Positions 3,025 through 48,559 of a stretch of 64,000 bases of DNA are shown piece by piece. A program made the translations under genes and the position numbers. The stretch lies in the NCBI GenBank assembly GCA_964373505.1, contig CAYJVC010000001.1, positions 41,630 to 105,629 on the forward strand, read 5' to 3'. The DNA comes from an uncultured Planctomycetia bacterium (GTDB taxonomy: Bacteria; Omnitrophota; Gorgyraeia; 2-02-FULL-51-18). Under the pieces are notes generated by a model. That model ran no database searches. It worked only from the letters and a program-made list of their open reading frames with translations, and was not told where the DNA came from. How positions within the stretch are numbered: position 1 is the stretch's first letter; the number at the start of each line of letters is the position of its first letter.

Positions 3025-3140
3025 ATGACCCCACCCCCTCATTTTGAGGCGGACTGTTTTTGGGGTTTTTTGAGTCGTATTTGATTCGCCTCGACGCGCT
3101 TTGCGCCTCGGCGCGTAGCGCAAATGAGGGGGTGGGGTGA
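3025..3140 (+). repeat. Structured intergenic element copy E1: arms CCCCACCCCCTCATTT / AAATGAGGGGGTGGGG, right arm contains lysS GTG start
   Basis: 16-bp perfect inverted repeat (3029-3044 vs 3122-3137) flanking ~77 nt of GC hairpins. ATGACCCC at left, GGGGTGA at right. Confidence 0.8.
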
Positions 3141-4601: not shown

Positions 4602-5792
4602 TTGATTTTTATGCATTACGAATGGCTGATCGCGCAGCGCTACCTCTGGTCGAAACGCCGCCATCCGTTCGTGGGCGTGACCAGTACGATCTCTATTGTG
4701 GGGATCTCGGTGGGCGTGGCCGCGCTTCTTGTGGTGTTGGCCGTGATGAACGGATTTGACGGGGAACTGAAAAAAAGGATCATCGGCACGCGCGCGCATT
4801 TGGTCATCGAAAAAGACGGCGCCCTTAGCAATTACGCGCCTTTGTCGGCGTCGCTTCTGAAGCTCAAAGGCGTGGCGGGCGCCTCGCCGTTCGTGGAAGG
4901 CCAGGCGCTGATTCAAAAAGGCGAATGGGGAACGGGAGTGCTCGTGCGCGGCATCGACCCGGCTCTTGAGGGATCGGTGTCGAATTTCCATGAATACCTG
5001 AAAGAGGGCACGCTCTCGGGACGCGAAAAGTTCGCGGTCGTCGGTTCCGAGCTTGCGCGCCGTTTCAACCTGACCGTCGGCTCGAAATTCTCGGTCCTTT
5101 CGCAGTCCACAAAAAAACCGCTGGAATATGCGGTGGAGGGGATCTTTACTTCGGGGCTCTACGAGTACGACGCGAATCTATTGTTCCTGAATTTAAAGGA
5201 CGCTCAGGAGCTTTTTGAAATGAACAACGCGGTGTCCGGTATTTCGCTCAAACTTCAAAATGCCGAGGAGGCCGATCTCTATAAAAGGGGAATTCAAAAT
5301 AAATTGAAATACCCGTATGTCGTACGCACCTGGATGGACATGAACAGGACGCTTTTCGGGGCTCTCAAACTCGAAAAGATCGTGATGTTCCTGATCCTGG
5401 CGCTCATCATCCTTGTGGCCTGCCTCAACATCGCGGGGAGCCTCACGATGCTCGTGATGGACAAAACAAAGGACATCGGGATCCTGAAGGCGCTGGGCGC
5501 GACGCCCGGGGGTATTCTCAAGATATTTGCGCTTGACGGCCTTTTTATCGGGCTCTTCGGCGTGGGCGCGGGTTTCCTGACGGGAATGACGCTGTGCCTG
5601 GTCTTGGCCCACACCTCCTTCATTGATCTGCCGAAGGAGATTTATTACGTGGACCGGCTGCCTGTGAGCATCGATCCGCTCGACATCACGCTCGTGCTCG
5701 CGCTGGCCGTTATTTTAAGTTTTGTTTCTTCGCTTTACCCCGCTTGGGTGGCGGGCAGGCTTACTCCGGTAAAGGCGCTTCGTTATGAGTGA
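4602..5792 (+). CDS. lolE: Lipoprotein-releasing system permease, LolC/LolE (FtsX/MacB-like) family
   Basis: 396 aa, N-term TM, periplasmic domain, C-term FtsX-like 3-TM bundle. Immediately followed by lolD. Confidence 0.8.
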   Translation: MIFMHYEWLIAQRYLWSKRRHPFVGVTSTISIVGISVGVAALLVVLAVMNGFDGELKKRIIGTRAHLVIEKDGALSNYAPLSASLLKLKGVAGASPFVEGQALIQKGEWGTGVLVRGIDPALEGSVSNFHEYLKEGTLSGREKFAVVGSELARRFNLTVGSKFSVLSQSTKKPLEYAVEGIFTSGLYEYDANLLFLNLKDAQELFEMNNAVSGISLKLQNAEEADLYKRGIQNKLKYPYVVRTWMDMNRTLFGALKLEKIVMFLILALIILVACLNIAGSLTMLVMDKTKDIGILKALGATPGGILKIFALDGLFIGLFGVGAGFLTGMTLCLVLAHTSFIDLPKEIYYVDRLPVSIDPLDITLVLALAVILSFVSSLYPAWVAGRLTPVKALRYE

Positions 5793-7421: not shown

Positions 7422-7945
7422 GCTGCGACGAATGCGGAAAAAATAAGGCGACCGTTCATCTCACCGAGATTATCAACGATCAGATCACGAAGCTGAACCT
7501 CTGTGAGACCTGCGCGAAGGAGAAAGGTTCGGACGTGGAACAGCATTTCGGAATCGGAGACCTTTTGGCCGCGCTCTCCGACACGCACACAGCCTCGGCG
7601 ACCGCGGAAGCGCCGGCGATGAAAGGCCGATGCGCGCAGTGCGGGCTGACGTATGATGATTTTAAGAAAATCGGCCGCCTCGGCTGCAGTGACTGCTACA
7701 ACGCTTTCAAACCGAGCCTTGCGCCGCTTCTTAAGAAAATTCACGGATCCAATCAGCATTTGGGCAAGTCCCTTAGCCCGCAGGCGCTCAGTGAACTCAA
7801 GGTTTCTTCCAAGCATCACGATGAGCTTGAGCTCGTGAAGCAGGAGCTTCAAAAGGCGGTGAAGAATGAGGAGTTTGAGGAGGCGGCCGCGCTCCGCGAC
7901 AAGATCAAGTTTCTGGAAAAGAAGATAAAAGAGGGCAAGGCATGA
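7418..7945 (+). CDS. mcsA: McsA-like protein (CxxC zinc-finger pairs + UVR domain), activator of protein-arginine kinase
   Basis: CDECG, CETC, CAQCG, CSDC motifs then UVR motif EEFEEAAALRDKIKFLEKK. Directly upstream of mcsB. Confidence 0.7.
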   Translation: MSCDECGKNKATVHLTEIINDQITKLNLCETCAKEKGSDVEQHFGIGDLLAALSDTHTASATAEAPAMKGRCAQCGLTYDDFKKIGRLGCSDCYNAFKPSLAPLLKKIHGSNQHLGKSLSPQALSELKVSSKHHDELELVKQELQKAVKNEEFEEAAALRDKIKFLEKKIKEGKA

Positions 7946-8058
7946 CCCCATCCCCTCCTTTTTTATTTAGAGAATTGATGAATCCGCCCGCGGCGGGTTC
8001 ATGCGCCGTTTCCCGGATGATGAGTATTGAAGCGGCGCAAAAGGAGGGGATGGGGTGA
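7942..8058 (+). repeat. Structured intergenic element copy E2: arms CCCCATCCCCTCCTTTT / AAAAGGAGGGGATGGGG, bridges mcsA stop (ATGA) and mcsB GTG start (GTGA)
   Basis: 17-bp perfect inverted repeat (7946-7962 vs 8039-8055). Inner hairpins GCGCCG..CGGCGC, ATGAA..TTCAT. An element-spanning 38-codon ORF runs from ATG 7942 to TGA 8056. Confidence 0.8.
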
Positions 8059-20697: not shown

Positions 20698-21559
20698 GGA
20701 ACTCAAAGATCAGCCGAACGTCATCCCGGCGATCAAGGCTGCGCTCGAAAAGGGGCGTTTGGGGCACGCGCTTTTGTTTCAGGGGGGTTCCGATTCGGCC
20801 TCCCGCGAAACAGCGATGGAGCTTGCAAAAGCGCTTTTCTGCGAGGATCTCAAAGAATGGGAGTCTTGTGACGCGTGCCGCCCCTGCCGGCTGGTGGTCC
20901 GCAACGCGCATCCGGATTATCTCAAGGTGTCCCCGCTCGAAGGTTCCGAGGTCGTGAAGATCGGGCAGATCCGGGAGCTTGTGGCGACAGCCAATCTCAA
21001 GCCTTTTGAAGCGCGCTCCAAGCTCTTTGTGATCGATCCGGCCGAGGCGATGAATGAAGAGGCGCAGAGCGCATTCCTTAAGACGCTCGAGGAGCCTCCG
21101 GGGTCCACGCGCTTTGTTCTCATCACCCGGAATCCGGCGGGACTTCTCGAAACCATTCGCTCGCGCTGCCGGCTATTTTCTTTTGCGCCTTCGCGTGAAG
21201 CAGCCTCGAAAGACCCGGAGCTTGAGGGCCTGAAGCGGGAGGCGACCGAGATTTTTCTATCACGAGGCGAGCGGCGTACGCCGGGTCTTCCGGATCTGGC
21301 CAAGTTTGAGCGGGAAGAGGTTCAGGAGCTTTTAGACACGCTCATGGAGTATTTCCGGGATTGTCTCCTCATCCGGGTGGGGGCGGACGCGATGCTTTCG
21401 GGGGAGGAAGATCTTAGCCGCAAACGCAGGGTTGCCGGCGAACGAAGCGAGACCGAGCTTCAAGACTTGATCCAATTTTTTTCAGAAATAAAGGAAAAAG
21501 TTTCCGAAAAGGTGAACTTGAAGCTTGTGGCGTCGGCGCTTTGGGAGGCGGCACCGTGA
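20687..21559 (+). CDS. holB: DNA polymerase III delta-prime subunit
   Basis: AAA+ clamp-loader fold with degenerate Walker A, Zn module CxxC..C..C, SRC-like arginine finger motif SRCRLFSF. Confidence 0.75.
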   Translation: MSFRELKDQPNVIPAIKAALEKGRLGHALLFQGGSDSASRETAMELAKALFCEDLKEWESCDACRPCRLVVRNAHPDYLKVSPLEGSEVVKIGQIRELVATANLKPFEARSKLFVIDPAEAMNEEAQSAFLKTLEEPPGSTRFVLITRNPAGLLETIRSRCRLFSFAPSREAASKDPELEGLKREATEIFLSRGERRTPGLPDLAKFEREEVQELLDTLMEYFRDCLLIRVGADAMLSGEEDLSRKRRVAGERSETELQDLIQFFSEIKEKVSEKVNLKLVASALWEAAP

Positions 21560-21628
21560 CCCCGCCCCCTGATCGTAACGGTCGCGAAGCGATCGGTCGC
21601 CATGGCGACCGATCAGGGGGTGGGGTGA
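21556..21628 (+). repeat. Structured intergenic element copy E3: arms CCCCGCCCCCTGATCG / CGATCAGGGGGTGGGG (one G-U wobble), between holB stop (GTGA) and metG GTG start
   Basis: Arms 21560-21575 vs 21610-21625. Inner perfect 24-bp palindrome GATCGGTCGCCATGGCGACCGATC shares CGATC with right arm. Element length 69 nt keeps left GTG in frame with metG. Confidence 0.8.
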
Positions 21629-23187
21629 AGTGCTACCTGACGACCCCGCTTTATTACGTGAATTCGAAGCCACACATCGGGCATTCGTACACGAATATCG
21701 CGGCCGATACGCTGGCGCGCTTCAAGCGGCTCCAAGGGAATGACGTGCTTTTCCTGACAGGCACCGACGAGCATGGTCAAAAAATAGTCAAGGCGGCGCA
21801 AAGCGCCGGCATGGAGCCGGGCCCCTTCACGGATAAGATGTCGATGACATTCCGCGATCTTTGGAAAACGCTCGGCATTTCCCACGACGATTTTATCCGG
21901 ACGACGGAGCCGAGACACCGGGAGGCCGTGCGCCACGTTTGGACAGAGCTTCAAAGAAAAGGAGACATTTATACGGCGGCCTATAAGGGCTATTACTGTA
22001 CGCCCTGTGAGACATTTTTAGCCGACGAGTACGTGCGCCAGCAAAAGGCGGCGGGGCAGGAAATCGTTTGCCCGGACTGCAAGCGTCCGGTCGAGCGGAT
22101 TGAGGAGAATAATTTCTTTTTTAAAACATCACCATACCAGGACTGGTTGATCGGCTGCGTCGAGAAAAACGAGCCGATGAAGGTCCTCCCCGACACGCGC
22201 CGCAACGAAATACTCGGGTTTTTGCGCACGAACAAACTGGAAGACCTTTGTATTTCAAGGCCGAAGAGCCGGCTCGCCTGGGGTATCGAGTCGCCGCTTT
22301 CACAGGAGCACGTGACCTACGTCTGGTTCGACGCGCTCATCAATTACATTTCCGCCTGCGGTTACGGGGACCCCAAAGCCGCAGAGAGGTTCCAAAAATG
22401 GTGGCCCGCCGATGTGCACGTCATCGGCAAGGACATCCTGCGCCAACATGCGGTTTACTGGCCGATCCTGCTGCACGCGCTCGGGCTCGACCTTCCAAGA
22501 CTGATCTTTGCACACGGTTGGTGGGTGCAAGGCGGCGAGAAAATGTCAAAATCCAAGGGTAATGTTATAGATCCCGCCGAGATAGTAAGGTGTTACGGCG
22601 TTGACGCGTACCGTTATTTTCTCTTGAGTGAAACACCCTTTGGGCAAGACGGTACTTTTAGCGAGGAAGCTTTGACCCAGCGTTTTAACCGTGATCTTGG
22701 CAATGACCTGGGAAATCTTTTGCACAGAACACTGACTATGTGTGAAAAATACTTTGAGGGGGAGATCCCGAAAGGGATTTCAGCCCGATGCGACGGCCAG
22801 CTTCGGCAGAGCGTGAATGAACTCGCGCCGGCGCTCGGACCGATGATGGAAAGGCTTGCGTTTTCAGAAGCGCTTTCGGTGGTCTGGTCGCTCGTGAACC
22901 AAGCCAACAAGTCGATAGAAGCAGCGGCGCCATGGACTTTGTACAAAGAAGGTAAAACCCAAGAGCTTAAAGCCGCCGTTGTGTCATGGCTTGAAGCATT
23001 GAAGGCCATTGCGCAGGCGGTGTGGCCTTTTATGCCGGCTACCGGCGAAGCCATTTGGAACCAGCTCGGCATAAAGGAAAAACTTTGGAAAGAGCCGTTT
23101 AAGGAAAACCTATGGGGTTTTTTTGAAAAGGGCGGCCGCATTCAAAAGGGTGCGCCGCTTTTTCCCCGCATAGAAACTAAGAAATAA
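21625..23187 (+). CDS. metG: Methionyl-tRNA synthetase (short form, no C-terminal tRNA-binding extension)
   Basis: VKCYLTTPLYYVNSKPHIGHSYT (HIGH region), KMSKS (KMSKSKGN), Zn knuckle CTPCE..CPDC. ORF caller start 21541 is an N-terminal over-extension through element E3. Confidence 0.9.
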   Translation: MKCYLTTPLYYVNSKPHIGHSYTNIAADTLARFKRLQGNDVLFLTGTDEHGQKIVKAAQSAGMEPGPFTDKMSMTFRDLWKTLGISHDDFIRTTEPRHREAVRHVWTELQRKGDIYTAAYKGYYCTPCETFLADEYVRQQKAAGQEIVCPDCKRPVERIEENNFFFKTSPYQDWLIGCVEKNEPMKVLPDTRRNEILGFLRTNKLEDLCISRPKSRLAWGIESPLSQEHVTYVWFDALINYISACGYGDPKAAERFQKWWPADVHVIGKDILRQHAVYWPILLHALGLDLPRLIFAHGWWVQGGEKMSKSKGNVIDPAEIVRCYGVDAYRYFLLSETPFGQDGTFSEEALTQRFNRDLGNDLGNLLHRTLTMCEKYFEGEIPKGISARCDGQLRQSVNELAPALGPMMERLAFSEALSVVWSLVNQANKSIEAAAPWTLYKEGKTQELKAAVVSWLEALKAIAQAVWPFMPATGEAIWNQLGIKEKLWKEPFKENLWGFFEKGGRIQKGAPLFPRIETKK

Positions 23188-29335: not shown

Positions 29336-29405
29336 CCCCATCCCCTGTTTCCTGCGATCGCAAAGCGATCGGTCCACAGAGCGGAGGAAACAGGGGATGG
29401 GGTGG
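29333..29405 (+). repeat. Structured intergenic element copy E4: arms CCCCATCCCCTGTTTCC / GGAAACAGGGGATGGGG, followed by T-rich tract (terminator-like) after alr
   Basis: 17-bp perfect inverted repeat (29336-29352 vs 29384-29400). Inner TGCGATCGCA palindrome. Shares 12-mer AAGCGATCGGTC with E3. GTG in right arm not followed by a plausible gene. Confidence 0.8.
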
Positions 29406-31216: not shown

Positions 31217-31354
31217 TGAATAAATCCGAAGCACGAAATCCGAAATCCGAAACACAAAATTCAAAACAAAGGTTTCGGTCATTCGAATTTAGGGTTTCGA
31301 ATTTGTTTCGTGCTTCGTGCTTCGAATTTAGGATTTAGCACGAAAGGAGGATTT
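31217..31354 (+). repeat. AT-rich repeat-laden spacer between ilvB and ilvN: tandem CGAAATC x3, TTCGAATTT x3, TTCGAATTTAGG x2, forming a ~35-nt imperfect inverted repeat
   Basis: Left half AATCCGAAGCACGAAATCCGAAATCCGAAACAC is near-reverse-complement of right half GGTTTCGAATTTGTTTCGTGCTTCGTGCTTCGAATT. GC ~35% vs ~58% flanks. Confidence 0.6.
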
Positions 31355-32874: not shown

Positions 32875-32983
32875 TGTGACGTTCACGGGTGACGCGAGGC
32901 GGGGCGCCCCATTCGCGCGCAGCGAACCTCAGTTACGCGAGCAAGAATGGGGCTGCCGAGCGGCAGGACCCGTGAACGTCACA
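32875..32983 (+). repeat. Nested palindromic intergenic element (family 2) between ilvC and leuA: outer 16-bp perfect arms TGTGACGTTCACGGGT / ACCCGTGAACGTCACA enclosing three GC hairpins
   Basis: Arms 32875-32890 vs 32968-32983. Inner GGGGCGCCCC (32901-32910), GCCCCATTC..GAATGGGGC (32906-32914/32945-32953), CTGCCGagCGGCAG (32953-32966). Confidence 0.75.
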
Positions 32984-32996
32984 TAGAGAGTGTTTT

Positions 32997-34553
32997 ATGG
33001 ATGATAAAAACAAAATCTACATATTTGACACGACGCTTCGCGACGGCGAACAATCGCCGGGTGCCAGCCTCGACCAAAAAGGAAAGCTCGAGATCGCCCG
33101 GCAGCTGGCCCAGCTACGCGTAGACGTGATCGAGGCGGGTTTCCCCGTGACCTCTCCCGGGGATGCCGCAGCCGTGAGATCCATCGCAAAAGAAGTGAAA
33201 GGCCCCGTTATTTGTGCGCTGGCGCGCACGGTCCAAAAAGACATTGACATTGCCCTCGAGTCTTTAAAGCCCGCGAATCGGAGCCGTCTCCACGTTTTCA
33301 TCGCGACCTCTGAGATCCACCGCAAATACAAATTAAACAAGGCCAAGGAAGAGATCGTCCGGATCGCGACCGCGTCCGTGAGGTACGCGAGGGAACGTAT
33401 CGGCGAGGTTGAGTTCTCTCCGGAGGATGCTTCTCGCACCGAACCGCCTTTTTTGTACGAGGTGCTCGAGGCCGTGATCCAAGCCGGCGCACGGGTGCTG
33501 AACATCCCGGACACCGTCGGCTATGCAACCCCGTTCGAGTTCGGGAACCTGATTAAAGGCATTTTTGAGAATGTTCCCAGTATCGGCAAGACGATCGTGA
33601 GCGTCCACTGTCACAACGACCTGGGTCTGGCGGTCGCCAATTCACTCGCGGCCGTGAAGTTCGGCGCGCGCCAAGTCGAGTGCACCGTGAACGGCATCGG
33701 CGAGCGCGCCGGGAACGCGGCCATGGAAGAGGTCGTGATGGCTCTCGACACGCGCCGGGACATCTTTGGCGACAAGGTCACCCAAGTCCGAAAAGACCAG
33801 ATCTGCAAGACGAGCCGTCTGGTGAGCTCGCTCACCGGCATGATGGTCCAGGCGAACAAGGCCGTCGTGGGGCGCAACGCATTCACGCATGAGTCGGGCA
33901 TCCATCAGGACGGCCTTTTGAAGCTGAGAAAGACCTATGAGATCATGCGGCCCGAGGAAGTGGGATTCGGTGAGACACAGCTCGTGCTCGGCAAGCACTC
34001 GGGGCGGCATGCGCTCGAAAATCGTCTGGCGAAGCTCGGTTACAAATTGAACCCGAAAGAGCTCGAGACGGTGTTCGAAAATTTCAAACACTTGGCCGAC
34101 AAGAAAAAAGAGGTATTTGACGACGACCTGGCCGCGCTTGTGGACAAAGAGATCGTGTCCACGCCAAAAACCTATGAGCTCGTGTATCTCAGCGCACTGA
34201 CCGAATCGGAAAAAGCCCCGAAGGTCTCACTTAAGATCAAGCACAAGGACCGTGTGCTGTCCGCGGCCGGCACCGGCTCGGGCCCCGTGGACGCCGCCTA
34301 CAAAACGATCGACAAGATCTTGAAGTCCAAGAGCACGCTTTTGGATTATAAGATCCGCTCCGTGACCGTCGGCAAGGACGCGCAAGGCGAGGTGACCGTG
34401 AAAGTTGAAGGTTCCCGCGGCGAGGTGGCGATCGGGCAGGGTTTGAGCACCGACGTCATAGAGGCTTCCGTCAAGGCGTATTTGGCGGCACTCAATAAAC
34501 TTCATCAAAGGTCGGCGCCGCCAGGCAAAGAAAAAACGGCGCATGGCGTTTAG
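32997..34553 (+). CDS. leuA: 2-isopropylmalate synthase (long form with C-terminal LeuA regulatory domain)
   Basis: [29 protein letters not shown] (TIM-barrel metal site), ~150-aa C-terminal regulatory domain. Citramalate synthase not excluded. Confidence 0.8.
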
Positions 34554-43452: not shown

Positions 43453-44429
43453 AAAAGTTTATAGGGAATTTCCTTATGTCGGTTTACAAAGCGGGCCTGC
43501 TTTTCAGCCAGCGCAGCTACCGTTCTTCGCCCTCCCGTGTGAAAAGGGTGAATGCGCGCGTGATCAGCGTCGGCAACATCACCTGGGGCGGCACCGGCAA
43601 AACGCCTTTGGTGGCGATGCTGTCTCGAGCGCTTCTGGAGAGCGGCAATAAAGTCGCGATCTTGACGCGCGGTTACGGGAAAGATGAGGTGGAAGAGCTT
43701 CGGAAGAAACTGCCCGACGTTCCGATCGTTGTGGGCCGCGATCGCATTAAGACCGCGCAGGAAGCGATCCACAAGCACGGCGCTGGTTTTTTGATCTTGG
43801 ACGACGGTTTTCAGCATATTCGTCTTCACCGCGACGTGGACGTCGTGAATATCAATTCCACCCTGCCATTCGGCCCGGGAGGGTTGATCCCGGTAGGCAC
43901 TTTAAGAGAACCGATCGAGCATCTGGCACGCGGGCATATCTTTGTGCTTGCCAAAAGCGATATCGGCTCCAAAAATGTACACTGGATCCGTCAGAGGCTG
44001 TTGGCGGTCAAACCCGATGCCGTGATCTTTGAGGCCAGGCACCGCCCCGTCGGGCTTTGGGATTTTAAAAGGAACCGGGAGGTCCCGCTCCAGGAGCTCC
44101 AGGGCAAAAAAGTCGCCGCGATCTCCGGAATAGGCGATCCCTATTCCTTTGAAAAGACGCTCGAAAATTTGGGGGCCAATATCGTGTTTGCCGCGCGCTT
44201 CGATGACCACCACGCGTACACGGAATCGGAACTCAAAGATTTTGCCGCGCGTTGCCGGGAGCTCGACTTGAGAGAAGTGATCACCACCGAGAAGGATTTT
44301 TTCAGGCTTCAAGCCCTTCTTACGAGAAAAAAGAGCGAGAACGACCCGCCGCTTAATTTCAACGTGTTACGGATAGAATTTGAGATGAACGATGAAGAAG
44401 ATTTTATTAGAAGATGCATTAATCCTTAG
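43449..44429 (+). CDS. lpxK: Tetraacyldisaccharide 4'-kinase
   Basis: P-loop GNITWGGTGKTP, 326 aa. Confidence 0.85.
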   Translation: MKKFIGNFLMSVYKAGLLFSQRSYRSSPSRVKRVNARVISVGNITWGGTGKTPLVAMLSRALLESGNKVAILTRGYGKDEVEELRKKLPDVPIVVGRDRIKTAQEAIHKHGAGFLILDDGFQHIRLHRDVDVVNINSTLPFGPGGLIPVGTLREPIEHLARGHIFVLAKSDIGSKNVHWIRQRLLAVKPDAVIFEARHRPVGLWDFKRNREVPLQELQGKKVAAISGIGDPYSFEKTLENLGANIVFAARFDDHHAYTESELKDFAARCRELDLREVITTEKDFFRLQALLTRKKSENDPPLNFNVLRIEFEMNDEEDFIRRCINP

Positions 44430-46359
44430 CGCGGCCAAAGTCGCGCGGTGGATCGTTCACCGGCTTCCACTGAAGCAGTCCTTGTTTCTGGCCCGCGTGA
44501 TCGGCCGAGTGATCTATGCTTTCAACAAACGTAAGCGAGTGGCCTATCAGAATTTAAGGGCGGCGTTCGCGGGCGAGAAGTCCCCGTCCGAGCTTAAGGC
44601 AATCTCAAAAAAGTCGTTTGAGAATCTCGTGATGGCGATCGCGGAGTTCCTGCGCGTGCCGGACATGGACCGCGCCTATTTGGACAAGCACGTGCGCTTC
44701 ATGGGACTTGAGAAATTCCGAAGCCGCTTGCAAGAGAAAAAGGGTCTTATTTTTCTGGCTGCGCACTTTGGGAACTGGGAGCTATTGAGTGTCGCGGGCA
44801 GCATCCTGGGATTTCCAATGGTCGCGCTTGCGCGGGTCCAAAAACATCCGCGATCCGACGCGTTCCTAAATTCCTTAAGGACATGCAAAGGCGCCTCCGT
44901 GATCCACAAGGGCATGCCGCTGCGGGAGATCCTGCGGTCGCTTAAAGACGGCAAGATTGTCGGGATCTTAAGCGACCAGGACGGCGGGCGGAGCGGCACT
45001 TTCGTGAAGTTCTTTAGTCGCTGGTCGTCGACACCGGGAGGCGTGTCGACATTTGCGATGCGCACGGGCTCGCCTATTTTCCCGGTGTTCATGTTCCGCG
45101 AAGGGATCACCGAGCATCGTGTGGAGGTAGAAGGGCCTCTCCAGATGCCGGCCGAGAACTTGAGTCATGAAAAATGCGAGAAAATGGTCCTGCAGCAATT
45201 TGCGGACCTGCTTGAAAAAAAGATCCGGAAAAGCCCTGAGCAATGGCTTTGGGCGCATCGCCGCTGGAAGTCGACTCCGGACCGCTCGGTGATCCTCTTA
45301 AGCGACAAAAAGCAAGGACACCTGAACCAGTCGTTGGCCGTGTTAGAGGCGATCAGGAAGGAGCGTGCCACAAAAGGCTGCGGGCCGGAACATACGCGCT
45401 CCCAAATCCTCGAGGTCCAATACCAAAACCCACGGCGCGAGAAGCTGTTCAGGGCCCTGGCCATTTTATTTTCCGGGCATATTCCCTTTAAATCAAAGAT
45501 ACTCCGGTGGGTGTTGTCGGACCCTACCTACGCCGCGGTCACCCGCACTTATGCGGACATCGTGATCTCCTGCGGCTCGTCACTCTCCGCGCTGAATCTA
45601 CTCGTTAAAGATCTGAACGTTGCCAAATCCGTCGTGATCATGAAACCTCCTTTTTCAACGAAACGTTTTGATCTGGTGATCGCTCCCGGGCATGACCGCT
45701 TAAAGCCGTCCGGCAATGTGTTTGTCACCCGCACAAGTCCTTCACTCGTTTCGGAAGGATACCTGAAAGAGCGGGCCGAATATTTTGCTAAGAGCCTGGA
45801 GGAGCTCAACGGTTCCAAGCGCATTGGTCTTCTCGTAGGCGGCGACACAGAGCGCCTGAAATTTTCAAAAGAGTATTTGGAAAAATTCTTGGAACGTCTG
45901 GGCCGTTTCGGCGCCGAGTCCGGCGCTCTCATCTTAGCGACTTCCTCGAGGCGCACGCCGGCCTGGGCGGCCCAGCTCATGAAAGAATTGTTCAAGGACC
46001 GTAAGCGATGTCCGCTTCTTGTGATCGCGAACGAATCCAATGCCGACGGGGTTGTCGGCGGCATTTTGGGCTTATCCGATGCGGTCGTGGTTTCCGGCGA
46101 GTCGATATCCATGGTGTCGGAAGCGGTCTCTTCGGGGAAACCCGTACTCGTATTCATGCCTTCGGACCGGACGCGTGTAAAGCCTAAACACGAGGACTTT
46201 TTGAGACGCCTGGAGAAGGAAAGATTGATCGTGCGGGCCGGCCCGGACAATATTTCGGGGGCCTTGGAGAACTCCCTGAGCCGACCGGAGCGCGCGACCC
46301 CGGTGTTCTCGGGGGATCTGGATGTGTTGAGTGAAGCGGTGAAAAAGGTGGCGGGATGA
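44392..46359 (+). CDS. Bi-domain protein: lipid A late acyltransferase (LpxL/HtrB family) fused to an ELM1/DUF1022-like domain
   Basis: N-terminal ~290 aa LPLAT acyltransferase (HFGNWE catalytic HX4D-like), C-terminal ~350 aa ELM1-like putative nucleotide-sugar transferase (GHLNQS..., VIMKPP). Confidence 0.65.
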   Translation: MKKILLEDALILSAAKVARWIVHRLPLKQSLFLARVIGRVIYAFNKRKRVAYQNLRAAFAGEKSPSELKAISKKSFENLVMAIAEFLRVPDMDRAYLDKHVRFMGLEKFRSRLQEKKGLIFLAAHFGNWELLSVAGSILGFPMVALARVQKHPRSDAFLNSLRTCKGASVIHKGMPLREILRSLKDGKIVGILSDQDGGRSGTFVKFFSRWSSTPGGVSTFAMRTGSPIFPVFMFREGITEHRVEVEGPLQMPAENLSHEKCEKMVLQQFADLLEKKIRKSPEQWLWAHRRWKSTPDRSVILLSDKKQGHLNQSLAVLEAIRKERATKGCGPEHTRSQILEVQYQNPRREKLFRALAILFSGHIPFKSKILRWVLSDPTYAAVTRTYADIVISCGSSLSALNLLVKDLNVAKSVVIMKPPFSTKRFDLVIAPGHDRLKPSGNVFVTRTSPSLVSEGYLKERAEYFAKSLEELNGSKRIGLLVGGDTERLKFSKEYLEKFLERLGRFGAESGALILATSSRRTPAWAAQLMKELFKDRKRCPLLVIANESNADGVVGGILGLSDAVVVSGESISMVSEAVSSGKPVLVFMPSDRTRVKPKHEDFLRRLEKERLIVRAGPDNISGALENSLSRPERATPVFSGDLDVLSEAVKKVAG

Positions 46360-46442
46360 CCCCATCCTCTCCTTTGAAATTTTCAATTTTAGCGCGGTGC
46401 GCTGAGGCGACTTTGTCGCCTCGAAAGGAGGGGATGGGGTGA
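46356..46442 (+). repeat. Structured intergenic element copy E5: arms CCCCATCCTCTCCTTTG / CGAAAGGAGGGGATGGGG (one U-G wobble), bridges acyltransferase stop (ATGA) and GT4-GT9 GTG start (GTGA)
   Basis: Arms 46360-46376 vs 46422-46439. Inner perfect hairpins AGCGCggtGCGCT and GAGGCGACtttGTCGCCTC. An element-spanning 28-codon ORF runs from ATG 46356 to TGA 46440. Confidence 0.8.
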
Positions 46443-48559
46443 ACGTCCTTCAGATCCTCCCGGAGCTCAAAACAGGCGGCGTTGAGCGCGGTACCGTCGA
46501 CTTGGCAAAATACTTGAAACAAGAAGGGCACAAATCGGTCGTGGTGTCCGCGGGCGGCCCTTTGGTGGGCGATCTGACGTCGGCCGGCGTGCTGCATTAC
46601 ACGCTTCCAGTCCATAAGAAAAATCCGTTCGCGATATTCCGCTCCGTTCGGACACTCGCCAAGATCGTCAAGCGCGAGGACATCGACATCCTGCACGCAC
46701 GAAGCCGCGCCCCGGCGCTCGTGGCTTATTTCGTAAGCCGCAAGACGCATGTGCCATTCGTCACAACCTGCCACGGCTTTTATAGCAAACATTTCCTGAG
46801 CCGTGTGATGGGATGGGGAAAGCTCGTGATCGTGGCCAGCCATGTGATCGGCAGACGTATGCGGGACGATTTCGGCGTGCCGCACGCCAAGATACGCCTG
46901 ATCCACCGCGGCGTGAACTTGGAGGAGTTTAAAAGCAAGCTGGAGCACGAGCCTGTCAAGAAGAAGGAGATCATCGTGGGCATGATCGGGAGGCTCACAC
47001 CGATCAAAGGGCACCCGCTTTTCTTGAAGGCCATGGCGCGCGTGAGCCGAGTCATACCCCACCTTAAGATCCGGATCATCGGCGAAGCGCCCAAGCTTCA
47101 GTACAAGGAAGAGCTGATGATGCTGACGCGGAGGCTCGGCTTGTCACACGCGGTTGAGTTTTTAGGCACGCGGTACGACATCCCGGAGCTTTTGCCGGGC
47201 CTGGCCATTCTCGTGATGCCCTCCGTGGGGGAAGAGGCGTTCGGCCGCGTGGTGATCGAAGCCGGCGCCTGCGGCGTGCCCGTGGTGGCGACCCGCATCG
47301 GAGGGCTTGTCGACATTATTGAAGACGGAAAAGACGGCTTGCTTGTGCCGACGGATGATCCCAAGATCCTCGCGGATGCGATCATTCGCATTTTGAAAGA
47401 TCCGGCGCTTGGCCAAACGCTCGCTCTGGCACTTCATGAAAAGGTGCGGAAGGAATTCAGCCTTGAGCTTATGTTCCGGAAAACATTGGAGGTTTATCGG
47501 GAGGCGCTGTCAAGAAAGAGGATCCTCGTGATCAAATTGAGCGCCGTCGGCGACGTGATCTTAAGTATTCCTTCGATCCGCGCGTTGCGGGAAAAGTTTG
47601 CCGACGCCTGGATATCGGCTCTCGTGGGCCGGAAATCAAGGAAGATCCTCCGTAATTGCCCGTATCTGAATGACGTGATCGTTTATGAGGAGGCAAGCGG
47701 GAAAAATCACTTCCTGAATATTTTGCAGACCGCGCGGCTTCTCGCTAAAGAAGACTTCGATATCGTCGTGGACCTGCAGAATAACCGGATGAGCCACCTG
47801 TTGGCCTTTTTGTCCGGCGCCCGCGTGCGCGTCGGACACAACAACCGCAAATGGGCTTTTTTGTTGAACCGGAAGCCGGCCGATGCCTCCAGCGCCGGCG
47901 TTTCACCGCTTGAGCATCAATTCCGAGTCCTCAAACTGTTGGGCCTAGAGGGCTTTGACAAGCGGCTTGAGCTTTGGGCGGACAACGATGAGGAAGCGGG
48001 AATGAAAAATTTCCTCGCGTCCCAATGGGTTTCGCCAAGCCAGACGCTCGTCGGGATCAACCCAGGTTCGTCGCTGCGCTGGCCCACGAAACAATGGGGC
48101 GTCGAGAACTTCGCACGACTCTGCGATGAGCTGGCAAAAAAAAATATACGAGTGGTGATCACCGGCACCGAAGAGGATGCACCGCTCGCGACCGAACTCT
48201 TTCGCCTCACAAGAAATAAACCGATCAATGCGGTCGGCCGAACCACGATCACGGAGCTTGTGGCGCTCATCCGCCGCTGCCAGACGTTCGTAAGCTCGGA
48301 TTCGGCGCCGATGCATATTGCGTCAAGCGTGGACGTGCCGCTCGTGGCGATTTTCGGGCCCACAGACCCCAAGCGGCACTTGGCGCCTCCTTCGCACTAC
48401 CAGGTCTTTTGGAAAGAAGTCCATTGCAGCCCCTGTTATCTGCGGAGTTGTCCGATAGGGCTTATTTGCATGAAGAAGATCGGCGTGCAGGAAGTGCTGG
48501 ACGCGGTCTGTCATCTGGCGGAGGCGCAGCGACCCAAGTCCGCCAAAACCCCTCTATGA
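46439..48559 (+). CDS. Bifunctional LPS-core glycosyltransferase: N-terminal GT4 domain fused to C-terminal GT9 (heptosyltransferase-like) domain
   Basis: GT4 N-half (VNVLQILPELKTGGVERGTVDLA..., EAFGRVVIEAGACGVPVVAT). GT9 C-half from ~aa 350 (RILVIKLSAVGDVILSIPS..., DSAPMHIASS). Confidence 0.75.
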   Translation: MNVLQILPELKTGGVERGTVDLAKYLKQEGHKSVVVSAGGPLVGDLTSAGVLHYTLPVHKKNPFAIFRSVRTLAKIVKREDIDILHARSRAPALVAYFVSRKTHVPFVTTCHGFYSKHFLSRVMGWGKLVIVASHVIGRRMRDDFGVPHAKIRLIHRGVNLEEFKSKLEHEPVKKKEIIVGMIGRLTPIKGHPLFLKAMARVSRVIPHLKIRIIGEAPKLQYKEELMMLTRRLGLSHAVEFLGTRYDIPELLPGLAILVMPSVGEEAFGRVVIEAGACGVPVVATRIGGLVDIIEDGKDGLLVPTDDPKILADAIIRILKDPALGQTLALALHEKVRKEFSLELMFRKTLEVYREALSRKRILVIKLSAVGDVILSIPSIRALREKFADAWISALVGRKSRKILRNCPYLNDVIVYEEASGKNHFLNILQTARLLAKEDFDIVVDLQNNRMSHLLAFLSGARVRVGHNNRKWAFLLNRKPADASSAGVSPLEHQFRVLKLLGLEGFDKRLELWADNDEEAGMKNFLASQWVSPSQTLVGINPGSSLRWPTKQWGVENFARLCDELAKKNIRVVITGTEEDAPLATELFRLTRNKPINAVGRTTITELVALIRRCQTFVSSDSAPMHIASSVDVPLVAIFGPTDPKRHLAPPSHYQVFWKEVHCSPCYLRSCPIGLICMKKIGVQEVLDAVCHLAEAQRPKSAKTPL

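Follow-up and report, generated by a model that had tools for sequence, protein, structure and literature searches.

Short hairpin elements on start codons in an Omnitrophota genome and the reading frames that run through them

Five copies (E1, E2, E3, E4 and E5) of a short hairpin element were identified in a 64-kb stretch of contig CAYJVC010000001.1 from an uncultured bacterium of the Omnitrophota, and the names borne by protein homologues also point to Candidatus Omnitrophota. This whole stretch is called the window; all positions without further label are those of the window, and copies in the source genome were counted within it only. All five copies are single and none is tandem. Four of them (E1, E2, E3 and E5) are located at the start codon of a gene, and an open reading frame (ORF) begins at the old start codon on the left of the element and runs into it. 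In E5 and E2 this micro-ORF ends on the new start codon of the downstream gene. The identities of the genes discussed (McsA, McsB, LysS, HolB, MetG, Alr, IlvB, LpxL-like and GT4+GT9) were confirmed by NCBIfam.

Hairpin elements at gene starts in the window

E5 (80 nt, 46360..46439) separates an lpxL-like gene from a GT4-GT9 gene, and E5 and all features at its edges are on the plus strand. It is closed by 16-nt arms (46360-46375 and 46424-46439) with one U.G pair. In the predicted fold (dG -58.3 kcal/mol, z -7.3), the interior contains two clear GC-rich hairpins and a weak AU-rich third stem that is missing from the centroid structure. The lpxL-like gene (44392-46359), which falls in the NCBIfam lipid A lauroyl-acyltransferase family, ends in ...GGATGA. 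The ATGA at the left edge of E5 (46356..46359) comprises the ATG (46356-46358) that is the ancestral start of the GT4-GT9 gene, and the TGA (46357-46359) that is both the stop of the lpxL-like gene and the left copy of the TGA flanking the element. From this relic start a micro-ORF of 28 codons (46356..46442; translation MTPSSPLKFSILARCAEATLSPRKEGMG*) runs without internal stop to the right-hand TGA, and E5 (length modulo 3 = 2) belongs to the relay class. The right arm contains an AAGGAGG resembling a Shine-Dalgarno (SD) sequence (46425..46431), which is located 7 nt 5' of GTG 46439 and is paired with the left arm in the predicted fold. In the GTGA at the right edge (46439..46442), the new start GTG overlaps the micro-ORF stop TGA (46440-46442). 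The GT4-GT9 gene (46439-48559) starts at this GTG and encodes a heptosyltransferase II-like protein of 706 aa, whose N-terminus VNVLQILPELK aligns with homologues beginning M-N-V-L-Q-I-L-P. Neither a plus-strand terminator nor a promoter was found at E5, which was rejected as an intrinsic terminator or promoter. Rfam gave no match at the gathering score in the whole window and none at E <= 1 around E5.

E2 (110 nt, 7946..8055, plus strand) is located at the mcsA/mcsB junction and also belongs to the relay class. The relic ATG 7942 overlaps the mcsA stop TGA (7943-7945), and a 38-codon micro-ORF (7942-8058; MTPSPPFLFRELMNPPAAGSCAVSRMMSIEAAQKEGMG*) ends at TGA 8056-8058, which overlaps the new mcsB start GTG 8055. 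The SD-like stretch of E2 lies at 8041-8047. An identical E2 is present in an independent assembly (L110, Logan ERR4904391; L numbers denote sequences outside the window), and E2 is therefore not an assembly artefact. The left arm of E2, CCCCUCCUUU, resembles the 3' end of 16S rRNA. The geometry of both junctions had been proposed in a preliminary description of this DNA and is borne out in the sequence, as is its proposal that the shared ends of the two peptides are encoded by the conserved inverted arms of 16-17 nt.

E3 (66 nt, 21560..21625, plus strand) is located at the holB/metG junction and represents the fusion class. The relic GTG 21556 overlaps the holB stop and is in frame with metG, as had been noted before, and the new GTG is at 21625. 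The NCBI call of MetG (P0241, 543 aa; 21556-23187) takes the relic GTG as its start, so that 23 of its residues are encoded by the element; its N-terminus, element part included, is MTPPPDRNGREAIGRHGDRSGGGV-KCYLTTP, and the predicted N-terminal peptide encoded by E3 is MTPPPDRNGREAIGR... (MTPPPDR...). For McsB (P0001, 352 aa), unlike MetG, the call begins at the new GTG.

E1 (109 nt, 3029..3137, plus strand) lies at the start of lysS and is the only copy with a length of 1 modulo 3. The ORF from the relic ATG 3025 stops inside the element, in agreement with the earlier reading of this copy, and the new GTG is at 3137. A near-consensus promoter (TTGACAGC...TATAAT, 2955-2985), which is kept in the relative L112, precedes lysS, and E1 therefore lies in a short 5' leader and not between two cistrons. 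E4 (67 nt, 29336..29402, plus strand) is located 3' of the alr stop TAG and has TGG as its right flank; no gene starts at its end, and it is followed by a promoter-like site for ilvB.

The arms of the window copies are CCCCATCC(C/T)CTCCTTT and AAAGGAGGGGATGGGG, inverted and 16-17 nt long. The predicted RNA folds range from -50 to -72 kcal/mol (z -7.3 to -8.5), and in these models the closing helix buries the SD-like AAGGAGG together with the first base of the GTG.

E1, E2, E3 and E5 are bordered by TGA on both sides, and the base 5' of the left TGA completes ATG, ATG, GTG and ATG, respectively. The junctions of both relay copies are empty in close relatives (E2, ...ATGAGCGTC...; E5, ...ATGAACGTC...). 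At the E2 junction, L111, which is the closest relative reached (McsB 92% identical), has a plain 4-nt overlap (...GGCAAGCCATGAGCGTCAAGG...), and two more distant relatives (L112 and L114) are also empty. At the E5 junction, the sequence is ...CTTCATGAACGTCCTG... and ...GGCGGGGTGAACGTTCTT... in relatives whose GT4-GT9 proteins are 81-82% identical, and the element is missing from the orthologous junction in L167, L168 and L169. The lysS genes of relatives begin with ATGA and have no element at the site of E1. The TGA stands on both sides of the element in the window, and L111, L167 and L168, whose sites are empty, have it only once. This comparison reveals insertion with duplication of the TGA, which is indistinguishable from insertion 3' of xTGA by an element with a terminal TGA of its own. 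E1, E2, E3 and E5 are each an insertion of one of these two kinds.

The empty sites of the relatives show that the ATG of the micro-ORF is the ancestral start codon of the downstream gene. In the preliminary description this ATG had been part of a translational-coupling cassette; the empty sites place it outside the element. The new GTG consists of the last G of the element and the TG of the repeated TGA. Insertion with TGA duplication thus explains the ATGA...GTGA geometry without appeal to function.

Family members and their reading frames

Further members were identified by a metagenome scan that asked only for both arms and a right-hand TGA and left the left flank free. The scan returned 50 loci, from which an unrelated family with a palindrome extending into TCA...TGA was set aside, and yielded about 18 non-redundant elements with perfect arms, mostly of exactly 16 bp and in a few cases of 12-15 bp. 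Every family member among these loci has D-TGA as its left flank (A 15, G 4, T 3 and C 0 when the window copies are included in the count), and no target motif longer than DTGA was found across copies. The loci span 45-71% G+C, and the family is spread across diverse organisms.

The four start-codon copies in the window are 109, 110, 66 and 80 nt long, which corresponds to 1, 2, 0 and 2 modulo 3. The earlier caveat that chance was not excluded holds for the window alone. Across the family, the pattern of phase and open frame exceeds chance. Phase statistics were based on 20 independent elements (22 unique sequences), which have 12 different lengths between 63 and 113 nt. The length modulo 3 is 0 in 11 elements, 2 in eight and 1 in only one (E1), and the probability of one or fewer elements in the last class is 0.0033. 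Every copy of length 0 modulo 3 joins the old start in frame to the downstream ORF with no stop in between, and every copy of length 2 modulo 3 is open as far as the right-hand TGA.

The frame of the relic start is free of stops in 21 of the 22 unique sequences and in 19 of the 20 independent elements, whereas in the five control frames 27-68% of elements lack a stop. When the interiors were shuffled (2000 trials), 10.2 of the 20 elements were open on average and never more than 17, and the Poisson-binomial probability for the open relic frame, calculated from per-element control rates, is about 3e-6. The relay phase alone occurs in 8/20 elements, which is not above 1/3. What departs from chance is that the third phase and internal stops hardly occur. 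In the comparison over copies that the preliminary description had called for, the relay that it emphasized is not enriched, and internal stops are rare (19/20 open, where about 10 would be expected). Two solutions are tolerated, namely the relay and in-frame read-through.

The elements are 63-113 nt long and have a closing stem of 16 bp with arms that are perfect or contain one wobble pair. Only the 11-nt tips, 5'-CCCCAYCCCCU and AGGGGRUGGGG-3', are conserved, and arm positions 12-16 co-vary between copies. The interior consists of two or three small perfect hairpins (stems of 6-8 bp, loops of 3-5 nt) with hardly any unpaired bases at the junction. Copies keep this layout while their sequences are wholly unlike, and this is true even of copies that carry the same arms within one genome (E2 and E5; L118 and L154). 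The strict 16-bp stem and the hairpin layout kept despite sequence turnover point to a machinery for transposition or processing that recognises structure. Apart from a subfamily of three paralogues (L118, L119 and L131), the copies have unrelated interiors, so the whole-length sequence shared by the members of a typical MITE (miniature inverted-repeat transposable element) family is lacking. These paralogues differ mainly in the loops, and RNAalifold found two pairs with both sides changed, one of them a clean G-C to A-U replacement.

In this 107-nt subfamily (L118 2191-2297, L119 3303-3409 and L131 8826-8932), the loop of hairpin 1 and the adjoining stem (CCTACGG) complement CCGTAGG (CTGTAGG in L119 and L131) in hairpin 3, and GAAACC/GGTTTC is present twice. 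These matches suggest a possible loop-loop contact or an alternative fold.

G.U pairs are more numerous in the sense than in the antisense strand (32 versus 8 overall and 16 versus 1 in the window copies), and the sense RNA folds with slightly greater stability (Wilcoxon p = 0.046). Selection on the sense RNA would account for the excess, but so could a C-to-T bias linked to transcription.

Several other assignments were rejected. The elements were rejected as ribozymes because no nucleotides are conserved among the interiors. A conserved functional peptide is not encoded, as only the arm-encoded ends, MTP(P/S)P and G(G/D)GV or EG(M/V)G, recur. A resemblance of the right arm to the original ribosome-binding site that MAFFT alignments had suggested was not upheld across copies. 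A looser pattern, CCCCRYCCCCT...AGGGGRYGGGG, retrieved from genome contigs unrelated C4/G4 palindromes of many phyla, and none among the matches listed had TGA/TGA flanks. Such unrelated C4/G4-rich palindromes (L001-L109; L117, L123, L125, L127 and others) are widespread in Bacteroidota, Chloroflexota, Sphingomonas, Streptomyces and others. Examples are CCTCACCCCCGYCCCCTCTCC...GGAGAGGGGRCGGGGGTGAGG and ...CCCCATCCCCTAAAGGGG...; they have the CCCCRYCCCC core in common with the family, but not the flanks. A literature search on the arm sequences and on repeats of Omnitrophota found nothing relevant.

The ORFs that begin at the right-hand GTG start as recognisable N-termini, including those of CoaE, a GT4 enzyme, LptF/G, Dxr, Fmt, TrpD, a GT2 enzyme, BolA, PstB and AroK. 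An upstream gene ending at the left TGA is missing for about a third to half of the copies, and the association is therefore with start codons and not with stop codons. The TGA stop codon was rejected as the target, since many copies have no upstream stop and 12/12 copies that have one also have a gene start, against about 62% of the TGA stops in the window. TGA ends 37 of the 58 window genes; 21 of these stops were scored by script as overlapping the next start, or about 23 when the displaced E2 and E5 junctions are counted. All gene-sized ORFs counted in the window are on the plus strand and about 40% of their junctions are ATGA, GTGA or TTGA overlaps; the source genome therefore offers unusually many xTGA start sites.

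The same start codons have been struck repeatedly by different elements. The orthologue of the GT4-GT9 gene in L159 carries on the same start codon an element (397-479) that differs from E5, which is an independent hit. Among 120 MetG homologues, two other genomes (L171 and L172) have different elements at the same holB/metG overlap as E3, of 78 nt (L171, 10005-10082) and 66 nt (L172, about 1206-1271, with the co-varied arms CCCCACCACTCGATTT and AAATCAAGTGGTGGGG), and the MetG proteins of both carry element-encoded N-terminal extensions. The sites struck repeatedly are either insertion hot spots or old insertions with sequence turnover.

Exceptions to placement at a start codon are few. A 78-nt copy (L126 8942-9019, minus strand as analysed; the same element is found in L163) lies in frame within sucD, after ...FIKTR-M, and adds 27 residues near the conserved CoA-ligase core, which indicates that the frame of the element is translatable. 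The copy in L144 is intergenic, those in L142 and L164 are ambiguous in high-GC DNA, and E4 follows a TAG.

Other hairpins were noticed in the same sequences. A second hairpin family with arms containing AAGCACGAAAT(C/T)CGAA is located 3' of ilvB in the window (31221-31330) and 5' of cysS in the related Omnitrophota L171 (6961-7064). A third hairpin (32875-32983) has perfect 16-nt arms (TGTGACGTTCACGGGT and ACCCGTGAACGTCACA) that are 77 nt apart; it lies in the spacer 5' of a gene starting at 32997 and resembles E1 and E2 in size and stem length, but has different ends. The genes ispD and ispF overlap in the window, but in L171 they are separated by a gap that is filled by a 196-nt inverted-repeat element (5546-5741), whose 22-nt arms (GCAGTTTGCTGAAAAAACCTCA) are perfect.

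Proposed mechanism and alternative explanations

The elements probably represent a family of short non-autonomous mobile hairpins that survive on start codons because translation from the old start is preserved. The element inserts at D-TGA with duplication of the TGA, and nearly all surviving copies are on a start codon followed by A, often in an ATGA or GTGA gene overlap. On the left of the insertion, the old start codon stays with its old ribosome-binding context, and on the right, a new GTG follows the SD-like stretch of the arm, with both locked in the predicted closing helix. Ribosomes would initiate at the old codon, either through coupling to the upstream gene or at the old ribosome-binding site, and would translate into the element and unwind the closing helix. 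Where the length is 0 modulo 3, they would continue in frame and produce an N-terminally extended protein, as in E3/metG. Where it is 2 modulo 3, as in E2 and E5, they would terminate at the UGA overlapping the GUG (-4 nt overlap) and restart there with the aid of the SD of the arm. In the third phase the ribosome would cross the new start out of frame, and after an early stop the helix would re-form; copies of both kinds would be purged.

Translation through the hairpin appears to be selected. The sequences show insertion at TGA, the bias in phase, a relic frame free of stops and, by prediction, a buried SD and GUG; from them we infer translation of the micro-ORFs, re-initiation at their ends and the mechanism of transposition. 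The comparative data (19/20 open, 1/20 in the third phase, P=0.003) fit the earlier idea that ribosomes open the helix and hand over at UGA/GUG; the relay is not the sole solution, however, and an upstream gene is not needed. The data would fit an evolved coupling module as well as a selfish element that persists only at sites where the gene can still be translated.

A number of points weigh against this reading. The relay phase is not enriched on its own. E1, with its third phase and internal stop, and E4, with no gene start, break the rule, and lysS must be translated in some other way. The elements are not fully independent, and those of 66, 78 and 84 nt could come from common masters, which would inflate the phase statistic. 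Openness may be partly intrinsic to the family and not selected at each site, because the frame is ambiguous in L142 and L164 (high-GC DNA) and L144 is intergenic yet open. A ribosome would pass only slowly through a helix of -50 to -70 kcal/mol. The scan, by requiring a right-hand TGA, left out copies like E4. No pair of ends 0.2-4 kb apart was found at any family locus (about 0.5 Mb of relevant DNA), and no transposase partner was found.

A wider version of the proposal, which is rather unlikely, regards the elements as an undescribed structured mobile family, with a 16-bp stem closing a three- or four-way junction, that targets or is retained at start codons and makes the translation of essential genes strictly leader-dependent. 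The genes so tied in Omnitrophota and other uncultured bacteria would include those for aminoacyl-tRNA synthetases, McsB, lipopolysaccharide enzymes, Dxr and Fmt. In this version nature would have produced a transposable "locked ribosome-binding site plus bicistronic key", through which the host could link expression to upstream translation and, in the MTPPP copies, also to EF-P or proline status.

It is less probable still that the pattern was inherited from a few open master copies with lengths of 0 or 2 modulo 3 and is too young to have decayed, comparable to the intrinsic ORF of the RPEs (Rickettsia palindromic elements). Lengths do cluster at 66, 78, 84 and 107-110 nt, the stems of most metagenome copies are near-perfectly Watson-Crick paired, which suggests youth, the intergenic L144 is also open, and L118, L119 and L131 are clear paralogues. 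However, interiors are not shared even between copies with identical arms in one genome (E2 and E5; L118 and L154), which means that lineages have turned over while frame and openness were kept, and only one of the twelve distinct lengths is 1 modulo 3. Moreover, an intrinsic ORF in the exact xTG-A frame would still imply selection for translation from the start codon.

There is little probability that the micro-ORFs are incidental to a selfish or structural hairpin and that the downstream genes are initiated independently at the SD and GTG of the element when the helix breathes, the geometry being an insertion footprint. Insertion with TGA duplication does by itself produce this geometry, the window phases are 1, 2, 0 and 2 with no excess of the relay phase in the family, and E1 works without a relay. 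Such an explanation nevertheless leaves the 19/20 stop-free relic frames (against about 10 expected) and the near-missing phase of 1 modulo 3 unaccounted for, and the predicted G+C-rich helix of 16-17 bp over the SD and GUG would make free initiation unlikely.

Cleavage of the 16-bp closing stem by RNase III or another endonuclease, which would separate the cistrons and free the SD and GUG as at RNase III sites of phage mRNAs and in Correia elements, is improbable. The perfect stem of constant 16 bp in nearly all copies does resemble a measured substrate of a protein or nuclease, but 16 bp is short for canonical RNase III. Processing predicts no constraint on frame or stops, yet both are observed, and it fits poorly with the in-frame sucD copy and the MetG extensions.

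The left arm CCCCACCCCCT, which is present in E1 (3029-3044) and all G-type copies, encodes M-T-P-P-P from the relic start, and polyproline motifs usually need EF-P. Stalling on this leader peptide, encoded in 15/22 unique elements, could in an erm-type manner let a paused ribosome hold the helix open for a second ribosome at the GUG, with sensitivity to EF-P or proline, and would account for the function of E1 despite its phase, but it is the least probable of the explanations, as the A-type E2 and E5 encode MTPSP or MTPSS, which are not strong stall motifs, and stalling alone would need neither an open frame nor a particular phase.

If the preferred reading of mobile hairpins tolerated through preserved translation is correct, the two-solution pattern is natural comparative evidence that ribosomes can terminate and reinitiate at 4-nt overlaps even across a highly stable helix and that harm results when they cross a start site out of frame. 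Life on start codons by means of a coupled ORF would suggest a general route for selfish DNA into compact genomes in which about 40% of junctions are ATGA/GTGA overlaps. The elements also matter for annotation, as start codons at such junctions are ambiguous in these uncultured lineages (MetG is called from the relic GTG and McsB from the new GTG), and pipelines will variously create false N-terminal extensions or miss leader ORFs.

Comparison with known elements and engineered leaders

REP/BIME sequences with RAYT are extragenic imperfect palindromes of 20-40 nt and have a GTAG/CGTC head, whereas the present elements are 63-113 nt long, have CCCCAY heads and lie on start codons; this assignment was rejected. 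IS200/IS605-type derivatives (PATE) have a TnpA (Y1) partner, insert without duplication on the 3' side of a constant tetra- or pentanucleotide and carry similar subterminal hairpins at their two ends. In the present elements, the flanks fit insertion 3' of DTGA with a GTGA end, but the internal hairpins differ within and between copies and no TnpA was seen.

The present elements resemble MITEs (Correia/CREE, ERIC and RUP) in that they are short and multicopy, have terminal inverted repeats and a short target duplication that is visible against the empty site, are co-transcribed and fold into hairpins. Typical MITEs share their whole sequence and are often traceable to an insertion sequence with the same ends, whereas the interiors of the present elements are unrelated and no autonomous partner was found at the family loci. 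The reading-frame constraint is a feature of the present elements and not of MITEs.

RPEs are palindromic non-autonomous repeats that are tolerated in reading frames by virtue of an open frame and add residues to host proteins (PMC10969869). The fusion class described here (E3/metG, sucD in L126, and MetG in L171 and L172) likewise adds residues in frame. RPEs are restricted to Rickettsia, are about 100-150 bp long, have a conserved sequence and peptide in each family and occupy many internal positions, whereas in the present family only the 11-nt tips are conserved, the position is almost always a start codon, and nearly half of the copies are relays rather than fusions.

In synthetic bicistronic designs, as outlined in a part of PMC12548453, a translated leader likewise delivers ribosomes and relieves RNA structure at the second ribosome-binding site, as proposed for the relay class. 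The leader ORF of these designs contains the SD, and its stop overlaps the start codon of the gene to be expressed. Such designs are engineered and immobile, whereas the present element itself brings the structure that has to be melted.

MIRUs (mycobacterial interspersed repetitive units) are the closest in placement. The accepted reading, as given in the portion of PMC12548453 (a J Bacteriol review of 2025) that cites Supply et al. 1997, is insertion with little harm to expression, and according to the same portion MIRUs, like the present elements, are short and apparently mobile repeats on start codons. ORF ends that overlap the flanking stop and start codons in a MIRU-like manner were found in E2, E5 and eight metagenome copies. 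MIRUs are mycobacterial and are often tandem direct repeats, whereas members of the present family occur singly, both in Omnitrophota and on metagenome contigs with 45-71% G+C. Unlike MIRUs, from which they are set apart by description, they have a 16-bp closing stem around two or three hairpins that buries the new SD and GTG, a TGA duplication and two phase classes (relay and in-frame fusion). To our knowledge, MIRUs have not been described as hairpins. MIRUs are a described precedent, and the present family belongs to neither MIRUs nor RPEs because the host, the sequence (the MIRU consensus being set apart by description), the single-copy hairpin architecture, the locked ribosome-binding site and the phase classes differ. 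The family would be the second independent mobile element, after MIRUs, to live on start codons by means of a coupled ORF.

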